Assembly: GCA_013343275.1 (NCBI GenBank)
Contig: CP046106.1
Span: 384,001 to 448,000 of the forward strand
Length of the DNA stretch: 64,000 bases
Source of the DNA: Candidatus Nanohaloarchaea archaeon
GTDB taxonomy: Archaea; Nanohalarchaeota; Nanosalinia; Nanosalinales; Nanosalinaceae
Direction of reading: 5' to 3'
Both the position numbers and the translations under genes were made by a program. The notes beneath the pieces are model-generated. The model ran no database searches and was not told the DNA's origin. It worked only from the letters and a program-made list of their open reading frames with translations. Below are positions 42,928-49,096 of this stretch, piece by piece (position 1 is the stretch's first letter; every line of letters begins with the position of its first letter).

Positions 42928-43233
42928 TTAAAGCTTAGATCTGAAATGATCAACAATTTTCTCCAGCTTCCTCTCCTTCTCCAGAGTGCTGCTCGAGTTA
43001 AGGAAGTCCTGAACCAGTTTATACATGTAACCGTTCACATCTCTCAGCTCCTCTATACGGGAACCAGTGTCAGGAACCTCAAGGCCTTCCACCTCGTACT
43101 GCTTCTCAACCGCGAACCGGAGGACTTCATACATCTGAAACCTTTTCTGGCCTACATCATCTCCTCCAACAGCACCCATCATTTCATCCAGCTGCTCCGA
43201 GATATCTTCAGAATCAGAGGACATTTTAACCAC
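42928..43233 (-). CDS. Hypothetical protein
   Basis: About 100 aa acidic ORF coupled to the upstream YbaK fusion. Confidence 0.65.
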   Translation of the reverse strand: MVKMSSDSEDISEQLDEMMGAVGGDDVGQKRFQMYEVLRFAVEKQYEVEGLEVPDTGSRIEELRDVNGYMYKLVQDFLNSSSTLEKERKLEKIVDHFRSKL

Positions 43234-44125
43234 CTATCTTCTCCTCGATAGCCTGTCGGGCCTCACCGCCATCAGCCTGGCCATTGGTCTCCTGCATTAC
43301 CTGGCCCAGAAGATAGTTGAGGGCCGAATCCTTCCCGTTCCTGTAGTCCTCAACAGCTTCTGGATTCCCCTCAAGCACCTGGTCAACAGCTTCTTCAAGC
43401 GAGAAGTCCTTCTCATCCGGCAGCTCACCATCTCTTTCATAGGCCTGCACCAGTTTCTGCATGTGAGTCTCTCTTTCAGCTCTTCCCAGAACTTCCTCAG
43501 CAACTCCTTCTTCAAACTCAAGTCCATGTCTCCTGAATTCCTCCAGGAGACCAATCACAAGGCCAGTATCAAAACCAGTATTTAACTCACGGAACTGCTC
43601 CTCAATACCAGCGGAGAGAACAAATCTGGCCTCCTCTTCGTCGAGACCTTCATCTTCAAGTTCGCTGATGTCCTCCTCAGTGAACTCCACAATATCTGAT
43701 ACCTCAAAATCGAAGTCTGATTTTTCAAGGCCTTCCCTGAAGTTTTCTGTGTCAATTATTACTCCTTTCTGGCTGTCGCCTGTAGTAAATGAAATTCTAT
43801 TTTCTTCAAGAAGCCTTTGATCGACAAAGTGTTTCAGTTCTGATGAGAAAGGATGTACAGTTCCTGATTCCTGGCCTGTGATCTCCAGCGATTCCTCCGG
43901 ATCCACCAGCCTGTGTTCCCCGAATTTTCCTGCTGAAAGTATTCTGTCCCCGGGGAGAACGCAGTGAAACTTTTCTCCATCCCGTTCAACGATCAGGCTT
44001 TTTGCGATCTGAGAGGTCTCTACTCCTCTCTCCCTTGCCGCGTCGTCGCAGTCAAGCGTTGGATTGTCCTGATGGACGATCTCGTATTCCAGGCCTTTTT
44101 CATCAAGAAAATCGTCGGCCTTCAT
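43226..44125 (-). CDS. YbaK/INS-family aminoacyl-tRNA deacylase domain fused to GatB/Yqey tail domain
   Basis: QIAKSLIV, GTVHPF; C-terminal NPEAVEDYRNGKDSALNYLLGQVMQETNGQAD aligns with the adjacent GatB tail. Confidence 0.8.
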   Translation of the reverse strand: MKADDFLDEKGLEYEIVHQDNPTLDCDDAARERGVETSQIAKSLIVERDGEKFHCVLPGDRILSAGKFGEHRLVDPEESLEITGQESGTVHPFSSELKHFVDQRLLEENRISFTTGDSQKGVIIDTENFREGLEKSDFDFEVSDIVEFTEEDISELEDEGLDEEEARFVLSAGIEEQFRELNTGFDTGLVIGLLEEFRRHGLEFEEGVAEEVLGRAERETHMQKLVQAYERDGELPDEKDFSLEEAVDQVLEGNPEAVEDYRNGKDSALNYLLGQVMQETNGQADGGEARQAIEEKIGG

Positions 44126-44126
44126 T

Positions 44127-45536
44127 TCAGTCCAGCTGTTCCTTCAGCTTTTCGCGGGCGGTTTTTGGATCGGCCTTTCCCTGTGATTTCTGCATTACCT
44201 GTCCTACAAGGAAGTTGAGTGCCTCTTCTTCACCTGCGTGGTAGTCGTCGACTGCATCAGGGTTTTCCTCTACGACTTCTTCCACGAAGCTGTCGATCTC
44301 TGATTCCTCAGCCTTGAGGAGATCTTTTTCCTCGATTATGTCATCAGGTTCTCTAGGGTTTTCAACCAGTTCTCTGAGAAGCTGTTCTGCGTTTCTATCG
44401 GAGATCTGATCTTCGTCGAGAAGGCCGATGATTGTGTTCAGCCAGTGGATCTTCAGCGGAGATTCGGAGTACGTCATGTCGTTGTAGTTCAGGACTTTCT
44501 TCAGGTCTCCCGTCATCCATGAGGCCACCAGCTGTGCATCGTACTGCTGGGCTAGCTCCTCGAAGTGCTCTGCAATTTCAGGATCCGATATCAGCGATTC
44601 AACTATTTTCTCTTTCAGGCCGTACTCTTCCTTGAACCTCTCGAATTTCTCGTGCGGAAGCTCGGGGATCGTCTCTCTCAAGGCCTTTCTGTAGTTTTCG
44701 GATAGCTCCTGTCTTGTAAGATCGGGGTCGAAGATGTATCCGTAGTCTTCCTCCGTTTCCTTCTCTCTGAGTTTCTCTGTGATCTCCTGGTTGGCATCGT
44801 AGTTCCGTGTTTCCTGTTCTACTTCACGGCCTCTCTTCTTCAGCTGTTTCTGTCTTGAGATCTCGTAGCTGAGGGCCTGTTCAATTCCCTTGGTTCCTGT
44901 GATATTCTTGACTTCTACTCTCTGCCCCCCTTCAATCGAGATATTTGCGTCGGACTTTATTGCGAAGTCTGACTCCGGAAAGTATACCTCCAGGTACTCA
45001 AGCATCTGTGCGAGCTGCTGCAGGTAGGCACGGGCCTCCTCCGGAGATTTAAAGTCTGGATCTGTTACGATCTCCAGTAGCGGTGTTCCGGCCCTGTTGT
45101 AGTCTACTTTAGTATAGTTTGATTTTCCGATCTGGCCTCCTTCGTGGACGAGCTTGGCCGGGTCCTCCTCTATGTGCAACCGTGTGATTCCAATGTCTTT
45201 TTTCTCGTCGCCGACCTTGACCTCGAAGCTGCCTTCCTCTCCTACCGGTACCTCGTACTGTGTGATCTGGTAGTTCTTGCTCATGTCCGGGTAGAAATAG
45301 GTCTTTCGTGAGAAAAAGATATCTTCATTGATGTCGCATTGAAGGGCCTGTGCTGTCTTCACTCCTCGGGCCAGTGCCTCGTCGTTGAGTCGTGGCTTGC
45401 TTCCTGGGTGGCCTAGGCATGTTTCACATACATGTGTGTTCGGTTCGTCGGCCTCCCTGTTTGGGCAGCCGCAGAAAAGTTTTGTATCTGTGTCAAGCTG
45501 TACGTGTGTCTCTAGGCCTATTTTTACATCGGTCAT
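44127..45536 (-). CDS. gatB: Asp/Glu-tRNA amidotransferase subunit B
   Basis: IGLETHVQL, RKTYFYPD, HIEED, DYNRAGTPLLEIVT, VEVKN. Confidence 0.97.
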   Translation of the reverse strand: MTDVKIGLETHVQLDTDTKLFCGCPNREADEPNTHVCETCLGHPGSKPRLNDEALARGVKTAQALQCDINEDIFFSRKTYFYPDMSKNYQITQYEVPVGEEGSFEVKVGDEKKDIGITRLHIEEDPAKLVHEGGQIGKSNYTKVDYNRAGTPLLEIVTDPDFKSPEEARAYLQQLAQMLEYLEVYFPESDFAIKSDANISIEGGQRVEVKNITGTKGIEQALSYEISRQKQLKKRGREVEQETRNYDANQEITEKLREKETEEDYGYIFDPDLTRQELSENYRKALRETIPELPHEKFERFKEEYGLKEKIVESLISDPEIAEHFEELAQQYDAQLVASWMTGDLKKVLNYNDMTYSESPLKIHWLNTIIGLLDEDQISDRNAEQLLRELVENPREPDDIIEEKDLLKAEESEIDSFVEEVVEENPDAVDDYHAGEEEALNFLVGQVMQKSQGKADPKTAREKLKEQLD

Positions 45537-45563: not shown

Positions 45564-46718
45564 TTACTTTTCTCTTCCGTAGCCCATCATCTCGGTCATG
45601 AACTGGATTTTCTCCTTCGCGTCTTCCTTCTCCCAGTCGACTTCTTCTAGGTATTCGTTGGCTTCTTCCGTCAGGTATCTCGACAGGTTCTCCGAGGCCT
45701 CCATTGCAGGGGTGTCCTCAACTATGATGTCGTAGGCCTCTTCGAGTTCGTAGTCTCCTGGATCTTCTTTCTGTATTATCTCTGTCAGGTACTCTCCTTT
45801 CTGGTTGAGTTCTTCATCCGGGTGAGTGTGGAGGAATCTCTCTGCCACATAGATAGGTACTGTGTAGTTGCCGTCTCTGATGTCGGAGAATCTTTCCTGT
45901 CTGAAGTCAAGTACATCGTCAGCTATCTGGAAGGCCTGTCCTGCGTTCTCTCCCCACTCGCGTATTTCTTCTCCTTCGTACTCTGTAGATATTTCTGCGA
46001 GAGATCCTATCAGGCCGAAAAGTTTGGCAGTCTTGCCTTTATCAGCGGTAACCATTCTATCCATTACATCGAGATCTCCACCTAGATAGTTAGGTTTCAA
46101 TCCTAGTTCATCGTCACCGATCTGCGTTCCTGTCAGGTCGAGATTCTGGCCGTGAACCAGGCCGTTCTCAGCGTCTCCAAGAGCGTCCCGGATCTGCTCC
46201 CTGTCTTCCGCAGAAAAGTATTCGCTTGAAAGCTCTGAAACTATATCCCTGTTCCGGGTCTTGATATCGATGAAGTAGTTATTGGCCAGGCTTTCAGCAA
46301 GATCTTCATCGCCAAGAAGATCAGCCATGTGGGCATGAAGCGTTTTCTCACCGTTCCTGACCTCGTCGCCGTCCTGGATATCGTCGAGGCCCTTGGTGTA
46401 GAAATGTATCGTTTCGATCAATGTAGCGACCTTCCCAAGCTCTTCTTCAGGAACATTGGAGTCCAGAGAGTCCACTATCTCCTTGTAAACGCCAGGCCTT
46501 ACTCTTTTCTGGTCGGGAGACAGCATCAGTTTTGCGCCCTGCTTCTCCATCTCGTTCAGCAGATCGTCCTGCTGCTCTACCACTAGGCTGTCCGCCATGT
46601 TGTGAGATATCTCGGCCCAGAAGTCCTCATCGATCATAGGTAGCGGAGGGCCTTCTGTCTCTGCAACTTCATCTACTTCCTCAAGCAGAGTGTTAACGTA
46701 TTCTGTAGAAGCACTCAA
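45564..46718 (-). CDS. Polyprenyl diphosphate synthase family protein
   Basis: DDIQD..RNG, GQNLD, KTA.LF, FQIADDVLD; TTG start after GGAGGGGAG. Confidence 0.82.
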   Translation of the reverse strand: MSASTEYVNTLLEEVDEVAETEGPPLPMIDEDFWAEISHNMADSLVVEQQDDLLNEMEKQGAKLMLSPDQKRVRPGVYKEIVDSLDSNVPEEELGKVATLIETIHFYTKGLDDIQDGDEVRNGEKTLHAHMADLLGDEDLAESLANNYFIDIKTRNRDIVSELSSEYFSAEDREQIRDALGDAENGLVHGQNLDLTGTQIGDDELGLKPNYLGGDLDVMDRMVTADKGKTAKLFGLIGSLAEISTEYEGEEIREWGENAGQAFQIADDVLDFRQERFSDIRDGNYTVPIYVAERFLHTHPDEELNQKGEYLTEIIQKEDPGDYELEEAYDIIVEDTPAMEASENLSRYLTEEANEYLEEVDWEKEDAKEKIQFMTEMMGYGREK

Positions 46719-46781: not shown

Positions 46782-48143
46782 CTAACCTGAATAGGTATAG
46801 GCCAGATCCAGGATCTTCTGCTCCTCGAAGTGATCACCAACGATGTGAAGGCCTGTTGGCATACCCTGGCTTTCTCCGTTAGGTATAGATATCATCGGCA
46901 TGCCAGCAAGGTTAGGCCCTACTGTCAGAGTATCCATCGCGTAGATTTCTTCAGGAGCCATTGATTCGGCCTCTTCGATCTTGGGGGCGATGTTCGGCAT
47001 TGAAGGAGAGATAACAGCATCGTACTCCTCAAACACTTCCTTGTACTGGTCGATTATCTTCTGTCGGACCTTCGCGGCCTTGATATAGTATTCATCCCTG
47101 TAGCCTGCCTGACGGGTATAGGTTCCTAGAAGAATCCTTCTCTTAGCCTCCTCTCCAAACCCTTCTGATCTAACCTCTGAGAAGTATTCATTGAAGTCAT
47201 CGAAATCTTCAGGATCCATCTCCATGCCGTAACGCATGCCGGACATCTTTGCCAGGTTAGTCGAGGCCTCGCTCATCGCAAGAACATAGTAAGCTGGTAC
47301 TGCAACGTCTGCCGAGAGAAGCGGCATATCAACTTCCTCAACAGTAAAGCCTTTCTCCTCCAGCTCCTGGATAGAGGCCCTGAAGTTCTCCATTACTCCT
47401 TCCTCAACTCCTTCAAGTTCAAGGTACTGTTCTGGCACTGCAATTTTGCCTTCTGCTTCGGAAAGGTTCTCGGAGTACTCAGGTACTTCCTTGCTTGACA
47501 TTGTCTGGTCGTTCTCATCTTCACCGGCGATTACCTCCAGACCTTTTGCAACTCCAAAGACTGATTTGGCAAGGACTCCAATCTTGTCAAGAGAGTTAGC
47601 GTAATCTACAAGGCCATAGCGAGAGACTCTTCCATAGGTCGGTGTGATACCGACTACACCATTGTATGCTGCAGGATTGGTGATCGAGCCTCCGGTTGAT
47701 TCTCCCAGAGAGATCAATGGCTGATCCATTGCTGCGACAACTGCTCCAGCTCCTCCAGAAGAACCTCCAACAACTCTTTCTTCATCGTGAGGATTTCTCG
47801 GCGTGTCGAACGCACAGTTAGTGGAGAAAGTTCCAAAGCCGAATTCGTCCTGATTGGTTTTTCCGTAGAAACGGGCGCCGGCCTCCTTCAATCTTTCAAC
47901 TACTGTAGCATCGAATACCGGCCTGTAGTCCTCCAAGATCTTGCTGCCTGCAGAAGTAGTAACTCCTTCAGTACAGATAGCATCCTTCACCACGAAAGGG
48001 ATATTCTGCAGAGAGCCTTCTTTCGTCTCTCCCTGCTTGATCTCTCTCATGAAGCTCAGTTCTTCGTTTCTATCCTGGAGCTCCTGGTAGAATTTTTCGT
48101 GATCTATTTCTTTCTCGCCTTTCAGAACTTTTTCCACAGTCAT
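46782..48143 (-). CDS. gatA: Asp/Glu-tRNA amidotransferase subunit A
   Basis: VKD, GKTN.DEF, GGSSGG, TGGSI, YGRVSRYG, KRRILLGT. Confidence 0.95.
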   Translation of the reverse strand: MTVEKVLKGEKEIDHEKFYQELQDRNEELSFMREIKQGETKEGSLQNIPFVVKDAICTEGVTTSAGSKILEDYRPVFDATVVERLKEAGARFYGKTNQDEFGFGTFSTNCAFDTPRNPHDEERVVGGSSGGAGAVVAAMDQPLISLGESTGGSITNPAAYNGVVGITPTYGRVSRYGLVDYANSLDKIGVLAKSVFGVAKGLEVIAGEDENDQTMSSKEVPEYSENLSEAEGKIAVPEQYLELEGVEEGVMENFRASIQELEEKGFTVEEVDMPLLSADVAVPAYYVLAMSEASTNLAKMSGMRYGMEMDPEDFDDFNEYFSEVRSEGFGEEAKRRILLGTYTRQAGYRDEYYIKAAKVRQKIIDQYKEVFEEYDAVISPSMPNIAPKIEEAESMAPEEIYAMDTLTVGPNLAGMPMISIPNGESQGMPTGLHIVGDHFEEQKILDLAYTYSG

Positions 48144-48194: not shown

Positions 48195-48320
48195 CTAATC
48201 TCTCCTAACACAGTCATCGACATGGAAGTTTTTCCCACATGAAGTACATTTCGGAAATAGAGGCCTGTAACCCTGGAAACTCATTTCTCCTCCGCACTCA
48301 GGACATTCCAGATTCATCAT
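48195..48320 (-). CDS. Small CPxCG zinc-finger protein (41 aa)
   Basis: Below ORF-track cutoff; MMNLECPECGGEMSFQGYRPLFPKCTSCGKNFHVDDCVRRD*; TAATG overlap with upstream stop. Confidence 0.7.
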   Translation of the reverse strand: MMNLECPECGGEMSFQGYRPLFPKCTSCGKNFHVDDCVRRD

Positions 48321-48808
48321 TAATCCTCCAGAAGATGGAACTCTATCTCCTCTTCCTTGGTATCAAGTACGGCTACGGAGAAGCCTTCTTCCTGGCCCGG
48401 CAGCCTGATACCACCAGGATTTAACTCCACAGTCTGGCCATCCTCATCGAGCTTTCTCTCGTGGGTGTGGCCCCGGAAAACATAGTCGTAGTTCTTCTCG
48501 ACGAGGCCTTCCACTATCCCCTCTTCGGTTCCATGGTATACTGCTATCTCAAGGTCTTCGATTTCCAGCTCTATTATATTATTGTGGAACTCTCCGAACT
48601 GCTGAACCGTAGATTTCAGGTTCCATTCGCCGTCGTTGTTCCCTCTTACGGCGTAGAAATCAAAACCCCGATCGAAAAGCTCTGCCGTGAACGGCGCGAT
48701 CATATCGCCGCAGTGAACCACTTTTTCCACACGATCATCGAAGAAATCAGCAGCCTTGTCGGCAAGTTCAATACTGTCGTGGGTGTCGGATACTATGCCT
48801 ATTTTCAT
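48320..48808 (-). CDS. YfcE/MJ0936-family phosphodiesterase
   Basis: SDTH, HCGD, GNND, HG, GHTH, NPG. Confidence 0.9.
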   Translation of the reverse strand: MKIGIVSDTHDSIELADKAADFFDDRVEKVVHCGDMIAPFTAELFDRGFDFYAVRGNNDGEWNLKSTVQQFGEFHNNIIELEIEDLEIAVYHGTEEGIVEGLVEKNYDYVFRGHTHERKLDEDGQTVELNPGGIRLPGQEEGFSVAVLDTKEEEIEFHLLED

Positions 48809-48817
48809 CAGTACAGT

Positions 48818-49096
48818 TTAAGCGCTTGGGCCTTTGAAATGGCCTTCTTCCTCGTTTTCCGTGTTGCGGAATACTTCCTCTCTGTCAAGAGTCTCCTCTT
48901 CCTCGTCTTTACGAGTCTTCGAGTCGACATCTACAGGATGGAAGGCAGGTTCTACATCCTCTGTATCTACCTCATCAAGTGATGAGAACTTCTCAAGGAT
49001 GTTATCGAAATCCTCCTTGAACTCCTCGGCCTCACCATCTTCAAGTTTGATCCTTGCATTGTCGGCCACCTTCTTTACTGTTTCAATATCTACCAT
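48818..49096 (-). CDS. gatC: Asp/Glu-tRNA amidotransferase subunit C
   Basis: VA..ARI.L, L.EVDTE.VEP, R.D, G.F..P. Confidence 0.9.
   Translation of the reverse strand: MVDIETVKKVADNARIKLEDGEAEEFKEDFDNILEKFSSLDEVDTEDVEPAFHPVDVDSKTRKDEEEETLDREEVFRNTENEEEGHFKGPSA

Follow-up and report, generated by a model that had tools for sequence, protein, structure and literature searches.

The question raised by this locus is why a putative aminoacyl-tRNA deacylase should be joined to the C-terminal arm of an amidotransferase subunit, and why it should be encoded next to the gene for that same subunit. In the 64,000 nt window analysed here, from contig CP046106.1 of a Candidatus Nanohaloarchaea archaeon, an open reading frame (ORF) with an ATG start, encoding 299 amino acids (aa) plus stop, is present on the minus strand at 43226..44125 and combines a YbaK/ProX-type domain with counterparts of GatB's helical and tail domains. 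Directly upstream on the same strand is gatB itself (44127..45536, 469 aa), recognized by its GatB_N and GatB_Yqey domains in Pfam and by a score of 571.6 bits with NF004012, where the cut-off is 338. The junction reads TGA-A-ATG, and the start of the fusion gene one base after the gatB stop is as the initial annotation had it. Because residues 149–299 correspond to the helical and tail domains of GatB, the protein appears, from its sequence and its predicted structure, to be a GatB in which an INS-type editing domain has taken the place of the catalytic cradle.

In Pfam, residues 22–130 match tRNA_edit (PF04073) with 52.6 bits, against a cut-off of 25.5, and residues 240–297 match positions 91–148 of the 148 in GatB_Yqey (PF02637) with 63.5 bits, against a cut-off of 27. 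There is no Pfam match in the fusion protein to PF02934 (GatB_N, the cradle). BLASTP aligns residues 126–297 with residues 279–468 of the neighbouring GatB (28% identity, E 3e-15, 34 gap positions), where GatB_N ends at residue 282. The initial annotation recognized homology to the GatB tail; the homology extends further, into the helical domain, and both the alignments and the model show that the entire post-cradle part of GatB is present and not the tail alone. The gene can thus be divided on the minus strand into an INS-superfamily (YbaK/ProX) aminoacyl-tRNA editing domain (residues 1–148, 43682..44125), identified from Pfam, structural matches and substitution rates, a counterpart of the GatB helical domain (residues 149–240, 43406..43681), identified from structure superposition and BLASTP to its own GatB, and a GatB-type, YqeY-like tail domain (residues 241–299 and the stop, 43226..43405), identified from PF02637 and structure.

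The AlphaFold2 model, made from an alignment of 22 sequences, has a mean pLDDT (predicted local distance difference test score) of 91.4 and a pTM (predicted template modelling score) of 0.73, and was compared with known structures by VIA-align, with which Foldseek agrees. Residues 1–148 superpose on ProXp-x TTHA1699 (2cx5) with Z 19.7 and a root mean square deviation (rmsd) of 1.9 A over 143 residues, on APE2540 (1wdv) with Z 19.1, and on H. influenzae YbaK (1dbx) with Z 19.0, the rmsd of these three top matches being 1.9–2.0 A over 141–143 residues. ProXp-x is the best structural match, yet it is within 1 Z unit of APE2540 and YbaK. The INS domain of prolyl-tRNA synthetase (ProRS) is matched with Z about 14. 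In the arm, residues 148–240 superpose on the GatB helical domain (3h0l_B 298–410, Z 10.1; 2g5i_B 295–406, Z 8.7) and residues 148–294 on the GatB of the P. aeruginosa Asn-transamidosome (4wj3_B 299–464, Z 8.7), with GatB matches overall between Z 8.6 and 11.1. The tail part of the model consists of four helices; residues 241–297 match the C-domains of YqeY with Z 5.6–6.3, through the C-terminal helices only, and at E <=0.01 Pfam gives no match to the YqeY family PF09424. The family profile aligns in HMMER with residues 404–472 of S. aureus GatB.

The fusion falls below all of the NCBIfam equivalog cut-offs. The best GatB model gives 54.4 bits against 338, all GatB cut-offs being at least 314.8; the YbaK_EbsC equivalog TIGR00011 (Cys-tRNA(Pro) deacylase) gives 27.2 bits against 153.25, and the GatE equivalog 16.7 bits against 456. 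The best GatB model gives E 8.7e-15 and GatE gives E 0.0019.

An N-terminal YbaK/INS domain with a conserved Lys in an AKS word and a GxxxP loop had also been claimed for this protein, and both features hold across an alignment of 22 homologues that are 49–75% identical to the query. The GxxxP loop, which is a defining motif of the INS superfamily, is here G88-T-V-H-P92 (43850..43864), with G88, V90, H91, and P92 invariant in 22 of 22 homologues, and a G...P word is found in every row of a set of 63 editing domains. His91 was considered as a mark of the fused forms and rejected, since G(S/T)VHP occurs as well in a large group of archaeal domains that stand alone. The conserved INS-superfamily Lys is K42 (codon at 44000..44002), likewise invariant (22/22) and aligned with the Lys of 'IVKTLIV' in APE2540; its equivalent in H. 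influenzae YbaK, K46, is described in passages of PMC3532385 as the critical active-site Lys.

Ratios of nonsynonymous to synonymous substitution (dN/dS) were calculated by the Nei-Gojobori method (NG86) for seven pairs, two of which were usable, with dS <1.5 in both halves; of the remainder, one was saturated (dS >2) and four yielded no value in one half or in both. The N half has dN/dS of 0.057 and the C half of 0.158 in the pair L023/L024, with values of 0.065 and 0.142 in L019/L028. There is purifying selection on both halves, and it is stronger on the editing half.

Residues of the tail were mapped, via the HMMER alignment to S. aureus GatB, onto those named in the relevant parts of PMC2811023, in which V449, M452, G457, A459, and P461 (S. 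aureus numbering) form a hydrophobic pocket for the D-loop. Three of these five are kept: the invariant M277 and G282 are the counterparts of M452 and G457, and A284, present in 90% of rows or more, is that of A459. The counterpart of V449 has no unambiguous position.

The initial annotation allowed that the fusion might be unique to this assembly, and proposed searching for its domain architecture and for its linkage to gatB. Proteins with both domains are readily found. A word-indexed protein search gave 166 proteins of 164–524 aa, all 120 listed having both Pfam families; the named proteins among the matches listed are nanohaloarchaeal, the closest being from Ca. Nanohalovita haloferacivicina (76% identity). 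The databases already hold the domain pair, labelled 'YbaK/EbsC family protein'. When representatives at 50% identity were searched exhaustively, there were 1636 matches at E <=1e-3, only 11 of them at <=1e-30, with ten representatives matching over near full length. Within the phylum of the window, the fusion is present in 34 of 70 genomes, near full length in 32 and cut by contig ends in two, and in 17 of the 28 genomes that are at least 90% complete. The fact that it is found in 34 genomes, with both halves under purifying selection, means that it is not an assembly artefact. An extra fusion in G003, in a 1011-aa frame, was rejected, there being an ordinary 304-aa gene amid many long overlapping frames. 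In G006, a genome with a true asparaginyl-tRNA synthetase (AsnRS), there is a match to residues 1–148 only (C29:9414-9839, 34% identity) with an in-frame TAG, which may be a decayed or differently built copy.

Species-representative genomes were also scanned with two peptide patterns, absence elsewhere meaning not found with that query. There were 43 loci, 22 of which were examined, and four of these (L046, L047, L061, L081) have both domains with gatB upstream. In the other 18 the frames are of 87–175 aa, lack the arm, and have no gatB closer than 4 kb; these loci are labelled Aenigmatarchaeota, Woesearchaeota, Iainarchaeum, Micrarchaeota, Nitrososphaerota, Geocrenenecus, and Methanomethylicia. 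The contig of L061 is filed as a metagenome-assembled genome (MAG) of Colwellia polaris, where gatA, gatB, and the fusion are 83%, 73%, and 55% identical to those of the window and the 98-aa ORF that follows the fusion here is also present; the contig is clearly from a nanohaloarchaeon and was placed in a bacterial MAG by binning. Around P0130 there is a clade of 13 non-halophilic proteins; both domains are present in 11, and two bear the labels Thermoplasmata and Hydrothermarchaeaceae. A metagenome scan for the context of this clade found no loci, and one with P0298 found 78 loci matching the tail stretch only, with no full-length relative.

As for linkage, of the 30 best loci in the phylum, counting that of the window, 29 have a same-strand gatB upstream of the fusion. 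The exception is G005, where gatB and the fusion are on different contigs. The gap between the two genes is no more than about 60 nt in 20 loci.

The association with GatB is also seen in other architectures. The best matches to the editing domain from outside the family are proteins of 626–638 aa with tRNA_edit, GatB_N, and GatB_Yqey, and a targeted search gave 24 proteins of 615–709 aa with these three domains, two of which are labelled GatB of uncultured archaea. In P0139 the editing domain is N-terminal to the whole GatB; P0142 and P0270 have it as an insertion within the N-terminal zinc loop of GatB, following the FCGC motif. When 52 editing domains were placed in a tree with IQ-TREE, 27 rows (16 arm fusions, 4 GatB-embedded domains, 5 long forms, and 2 short probable fragments) were parted from 25 stand-alone domains by a branch with 100/97 support, with both tRNA_edit paralogues of this genome on the stand-alone side. 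The same split, 23 against 40, is present in a quick tree of 63 rows, with 95 in the Shimodaira-Hasegawa-like approximate likelihood ratio test (SH-aLRT); this tree left out P0122, P0140, P0141, P0149, P0151, P0165, P0227, and P0254 and added 19 genome loci. The trees are unrooted; their rows were picked as the query's best hits, and they hold no named ProXp references. As judged from these sequences, the editing domain belongs to a clade, apart from the stand-alone relatives, in which every member is linked with GatB in one of three ways: joined to the GatB arm, placed before a whole GatB at its N-terminus, or inserted in the GatB zinc loop.

Four long relatives from metagenome clusters (P0154, P0144, P0140, P0141), which are of 185–504 aa and have a high content of Cys, Arg, and Ala, fall with the arm fusions in the trees. 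Some long relatives have an N-terminal extension of ~80–140 residues before the editing domain, and P0154, representing a cluster of 44, has a weak GatB tail. Their make-up is unlike that of the archaeal forms and they are possibly of eukaryotic or organellar origin.

The arm has its own history. In a tree of 45 arm rows, those of the nanohaloarchaeal fusions form one clade (97/94) and those of the other fusions another (98/83), and the two group together with support of 87/78. The arms of nanohaloarchaeal GatB proteins form a separate clade (99/99) that excludes the fusion arms. The presence of separate fusion-arm and GatB-arm clades rules out a recent duplication of the 3' end of the local gatB, and indicates that the arm is an old, fast-evolving paralogue rather than a recent copy of its neighbour.

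The genome, a single contig of 915,886 bp, has no AsnRS and no glutaminyl-tRNA synthetase (GlnRS). There is one tRNA-synt_2 enzyme, of the aspartyl-tRNA synthetase (AspRS) type in a 438-aa frame and below the cut-off of the asnS model, and one tRNA-synt_1c enzyme, with GatB and a GatE-like gene also present, and therefore both of the amide aminoacyl-tRNAs (Asn and Gln) must be formed indirectly. Three tRNA_edit genes are present, the fusion and the two stand-alone paralogues. A true AsnRS was identified in 5 of the 70 genomes of the phylum, none of which has the fusion, although these are small numbers from kin genomes. In archaea, according to the passages concerned in PMC2811023, tRNA(Gln) is served by GatDE, while the preferred substrate of GatCAB is Asp-tRNA(Asn); this GatCAB ignores the first (1:72) base pair of the tRNA and tells tRNA(Asn) from tRNA(Asp) via the D-loop, nucleotide 49, and how long the variable loop is, which are read by the GatB tail. 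When parsed by eye, the tRNA(Asn) of this genome has G1-C72, with 8 nt in its D-loop and 5 nt in its variable loop. For tRNA(Asp) and tRNA(Glu) these two loops are 11 and 4 nt, and for tRNA(Pro, TGG) they are 9 and 4 nt.

The tRNA(Asn) gene has a 15-nt intron after position 38. Two further tRNA genes (G000:C1:9254-9360 and C1:11528-11629) have apparent introns near or in the D-arm, and as they have A1-U72 and the anticodons TTG and CTG they encode tRNA(Gln). The intron mode of ARAGORN labels these two as Pro(cgg) and Ala(ggc).

What, then, would such a protein do? The reading favoured here, tentatively, is that it is a deacylase acting in trans and aimed at tRNA(Asn), which would most simply clear Asp-tRNA(Asn) that has escaped amidation. 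The target is likely to be tRNA(Asn) because archaeal GatCAB selects this tRNA via the same arm. The helical and tail domains would grip the tRNA(Asn) elbow, in the D-loop/variable-loop region, and the helical domain would span to the acceptor end, placing the acceptor over the N-terminal domain; the YbaK/ProX-type hydrolase, at the position of the GatB cradle, would then cut the ester bond using K42 and the GxxxP loop. The simplest substrate would be Asp-tRNA(Asn) released from GatCAB without amidation, the hydrolysis of which would keep Asp out of Asn codons, and tight coupling to gatB would keep amidation and hydrolysis in proportion. It counts in favour of this reading that the domain boundaries coincide with the end of the GatB cradle in the model, in BLASTP, and in Pfam. 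We infer here that the arm binds tRNA and that the domain hydrolyses, as well as which tRNA and which amino acid are concerned.

A proofreading factor for tRNA(Asn) or tRNA(Gln) was what the initial annotation had proposed. [quoted passage not shown] It may also be, though this is held with more doubt, that the one clade of YbaK domains married to GatB provides dedicated hydrolytic proofreading for the archaeal indirect route to Asn-tRNA(Asn), of which the fusion would be the trans-acting form.

Several points weigh against an aim at Asp-tRNA(Asn). The counterpart of P461 in the D-loop pocket is G286, and is Gly or Ala across the family. The KxGKxK motif of the tail corresponds to R262-N-G-K-D-S267, so that the Lys-rich motif is mostly lost: the Gly never varies, a basic residue (K or R) holds the middle position in 20 of 22, an invariant Ser stands where the third Lys would be, and the first position varies (at this site the GatB of this genome has HAGEEE). 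The arm is ~30 residues shorter than that of GatB, and diverged. Since the Lys-rich motif is reduced and P461 is replaced, the tRNA preference of the arm may differ from that of GatB. The amino-acid specificity of INS-family proteins is not readable from sequence, and the nearest solved relatives are free-standing, those characterised in the relevant sections of PMC11295145 editing tRNAs charged with Cys or with aminobutyrate (Abu)/Ala. Hydrolysis of an obligatory intermediate is a waste of ATP and competes with GatCAB. The gene is also dispensable, as 36 of the phylum's 70 genomes, and 11 of the 28 of high quality, do not have it; the closed genomes G032, G047, and G065 are without it, while their congeners G033, G050, and G067 have it.

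The linkage to gatB must be read with similar caution. The 30 loci are kin, 27 of them from one family of one phylum, and in nine of them the gap between gatB and the fusion is 330–480 nt. In seven of these nine (L012, L016, L020, L022, L031, L033, L039) there is an ORF of 111–157 aa in the gap, and in the other two there is no ORF >40 aa. When four of the seven gap ORFs were scanned with Pfam, one matched NUDIX and one Cupin_2 over the cut-off, one matched Cupin_2 with 26.2 bits against 27.2, and one had a weak match to DUF6141; the gap seems to accept small insertions. A homologue of the 98-aa ORF is downstream of the fusion in 28 of the 30 loci, and the same ORF is next after gatB, at 0–520 nt, in all five of the fusion-less genomes examined. 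It is tied to gatB and not to the fusion, and its place beside gatB is as well conserved as that of the fusion. Because it adjoins gatB in genomes without the fusion, the two genes that flank the fusion would be adjacent even if it were not there. The adjacency to gatB is by itself weak evidence, and may reflect history rather than function.

Other explanations would have the same architecture serve a different purpose. The arm could be a general tRNA-affinity handle, with the editing domain acting on the usual INS targets (Ala-, Cys-, and Abu-tRNA(Pro)) or on a broad mischarged set, unrelated to transamidation. That the closest structures are ProXp-x TTHA1699 (2cx5, Z 19.7), APE2540, and YbaK would be in keeping with this, as would the degraded Lys-rich specificity motif of the tail, and appended domains that raise affinity are described in parts of PMC9425024 (the C-terminal domain, CTD, of plant ProXp-ala) and PMC1865053 (the YqeY domain of D. 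radiodurans GlnRS). Two stand-alone paralogues, however, could already cover tRNA(Pro), the elbow of which in this genome is unlike that of tRNA(Asn). Within its clade the editing domain is found only with GatB modules, apart from the stand-alone forms, and the fusion is not seen in the five AsnRS-bearing genomes. A handle of this kind is considered unlikely.

Since the arm alone would give binding, and the 1-nt junction implies co-expression with gatB, the protein could also be a non-hydrolytic binder of tRNA(Asn) or its aminoacylated form, serving the Asn pathway as regulator, chaperone, or hand-over factor, that for example holds Asp-tRNA(Asn) for GatCAB or shields it from the elongation factor. 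Transamidosomes are described, in portions of PMC2811023 and PMC3367201, as protecting aminoacyl-tRNA and preventing release of the mischarged form, and PMC3367201 presents them as editing-like systems that modify rather than hydrolyse mischarged aminoacyl-tRNA. This is quite improbable for the fusion, which shows no variation in the catalytic Lys or the GxxxP loop and has a dN/dS of about 0.06 in its more constrained N half, as for an active enzyme; no non-catalytic member of the INS family turned up in the literature consulted. It is very improbable that the target is tRNA(Gln) and the substrate Glu-tRNA(Gln). Although bacterial GatB tails serve both tRNAs and the genome is also without GlnRS, the tail is of GatB type and not of GatE type, both in its E values and in the four helices of the model, and the division between GatDE and GatCAB noted above from PMC2811023 would leave tRNA(Gln) to GatDE, for which a GatE-like gene is present.

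The deacylase reading can be set beside known systems. The INS trans-editors (ProXp-x TTHA1699, 2CX5/2Z0K; APE2540, 1WDV; YbaK, 1DBU/1DBX) share with the fusion the fold, the Lys, and the GxxxP loop, and are stand-alone genes acting in trans, as the fusion too is a separate gene. In passages of a 2024 review (PMC11295145) they are single-domain proteins, except for plant ProXp-ala with its CTD and the ProXp-ala-ProRS fusions. The fusion differs in its two extra GatB-derived domains, in being separate in the trees, and in scoring below the YbaK equivalog. The GatB of GatCAB (S. aureus 3IP4, A. aeolicus 3H0L, P. aeruginosa 4WJ3) has helical and tail domains homologous to those of the fusion in sequence and structure, whereas the fusion has no cradle, and so neither the amidotransferase chemistry nor the domain that forms the catalytic body of the enzyme. 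The GatB proteins with a YbaK-type domain, known only as database entries from uncultured archaea, have the same editing-domain clade and the same pairing with GatB, with a GLVPP loop where the fusion has GTVHP. As these keep the whole GatB, including the cradle, their editing would act in cis inside GatCAB.

There are likenesses further afield. The GlnRS of Deinococcus radiodurans has recruited a domain of the YqeY/GatB-tail type as a tRNA-binding arm (PMC1865053, in part), and the fusion-family profile matches 2hz7_A at residues 795–848 (E 1.4e-6); there the partner is a bacterial synthetase, while in the fusion it is a putative archaeal deacylase. Plant ProXp-ala is an INS trans-editor in which an appended helical CTD raises tRNA binding and deacylation, as the arm might in the fusion; in the sections concerned of PMC9425024, the origin of this CTD is given as unknown, it also confers dimerisation, and the substrate is Ala-tRNA(Pro). 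The clearing of a transamidation intermediate has a functional precedent, because H. pylori GluRS2 hydrolyses excess Glu-tRNA(Gln) (PMC3241645, in the part dealing with this activity), although there, unlike in the fusion, the activity is in the synthetase itself with no dedicated editing domain.

The surrounding genes on the minus strand are tightly packed, in the order gatC (48818..49096; Pfam GatC, 60.4 bits), a Metallophos_2 phosphoesterase (48320-48808), gatA (46782..48143; Pfam Amidase, 387.5 bits), a polyprenyl synthetase (45564-46718), gatB, the fusion, and the 98-aa ORF (42928..43224). The gatC, gatA, and gatB genes are here interleaved with unrelated genes on the same strand, and gatA abuts gatB in the relatives L027, L041, L042, and L044. 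The 98-aa ORF, which is acidic and conserved, is joined to the fusion by the junction TAA-A-ATG and has no match to a Pfam family. Its Atlas leads are weak (the best 0.92), to clusters without names, and in one cluster KNTase_C is on 21%; the ORF may be a gatB companion that has gone unrecognised. A scan for sigma-70 promoters and terminators gave results below the shuffled expectation with a model that is unsuited to archaea, and was not used.

The indirect routes to Asn-tRNA and Gln-tRNA rely on deliberately mischarged tRNAs, for which the accepted safeguards are channelling in the transamidosome and rejection by the elongation factor. To our knowledge, hydrolytic editing is not part of the accepted picture, except for the side activity of the H. 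pylori synthetase. Trans-editing factors are usually without RNA-binding domains. The initial annotation knew of no described example, and the literature searches agree: no paper describing the YbaK-GatB fusion was found in the full-text literature, with subscription-only papers and supplements outside this scope, and nor was one found in the literature for the whole GatB bearing a YbaK domain, the domain pair itself being listed in databases. The design of the fusion is conserved, and it may police tRNA for indirect Asn synthesis. That close relatives differ in having or lacking the gene makes natural comparisons possible. If the dedicated proofreading of the archaeal route to Asn-tRNA(Asn) is true, no editing factor would have been known before the fusion for an intermediate of transamidation, and it would be a case in which a reader of the tRNA elbow has been re-used to aim a deacylase, a route by which trans-editing factors may gain tRNA specificity, and it would represent an unrecognised layer of quality control, with sister forms built into GatB itself.

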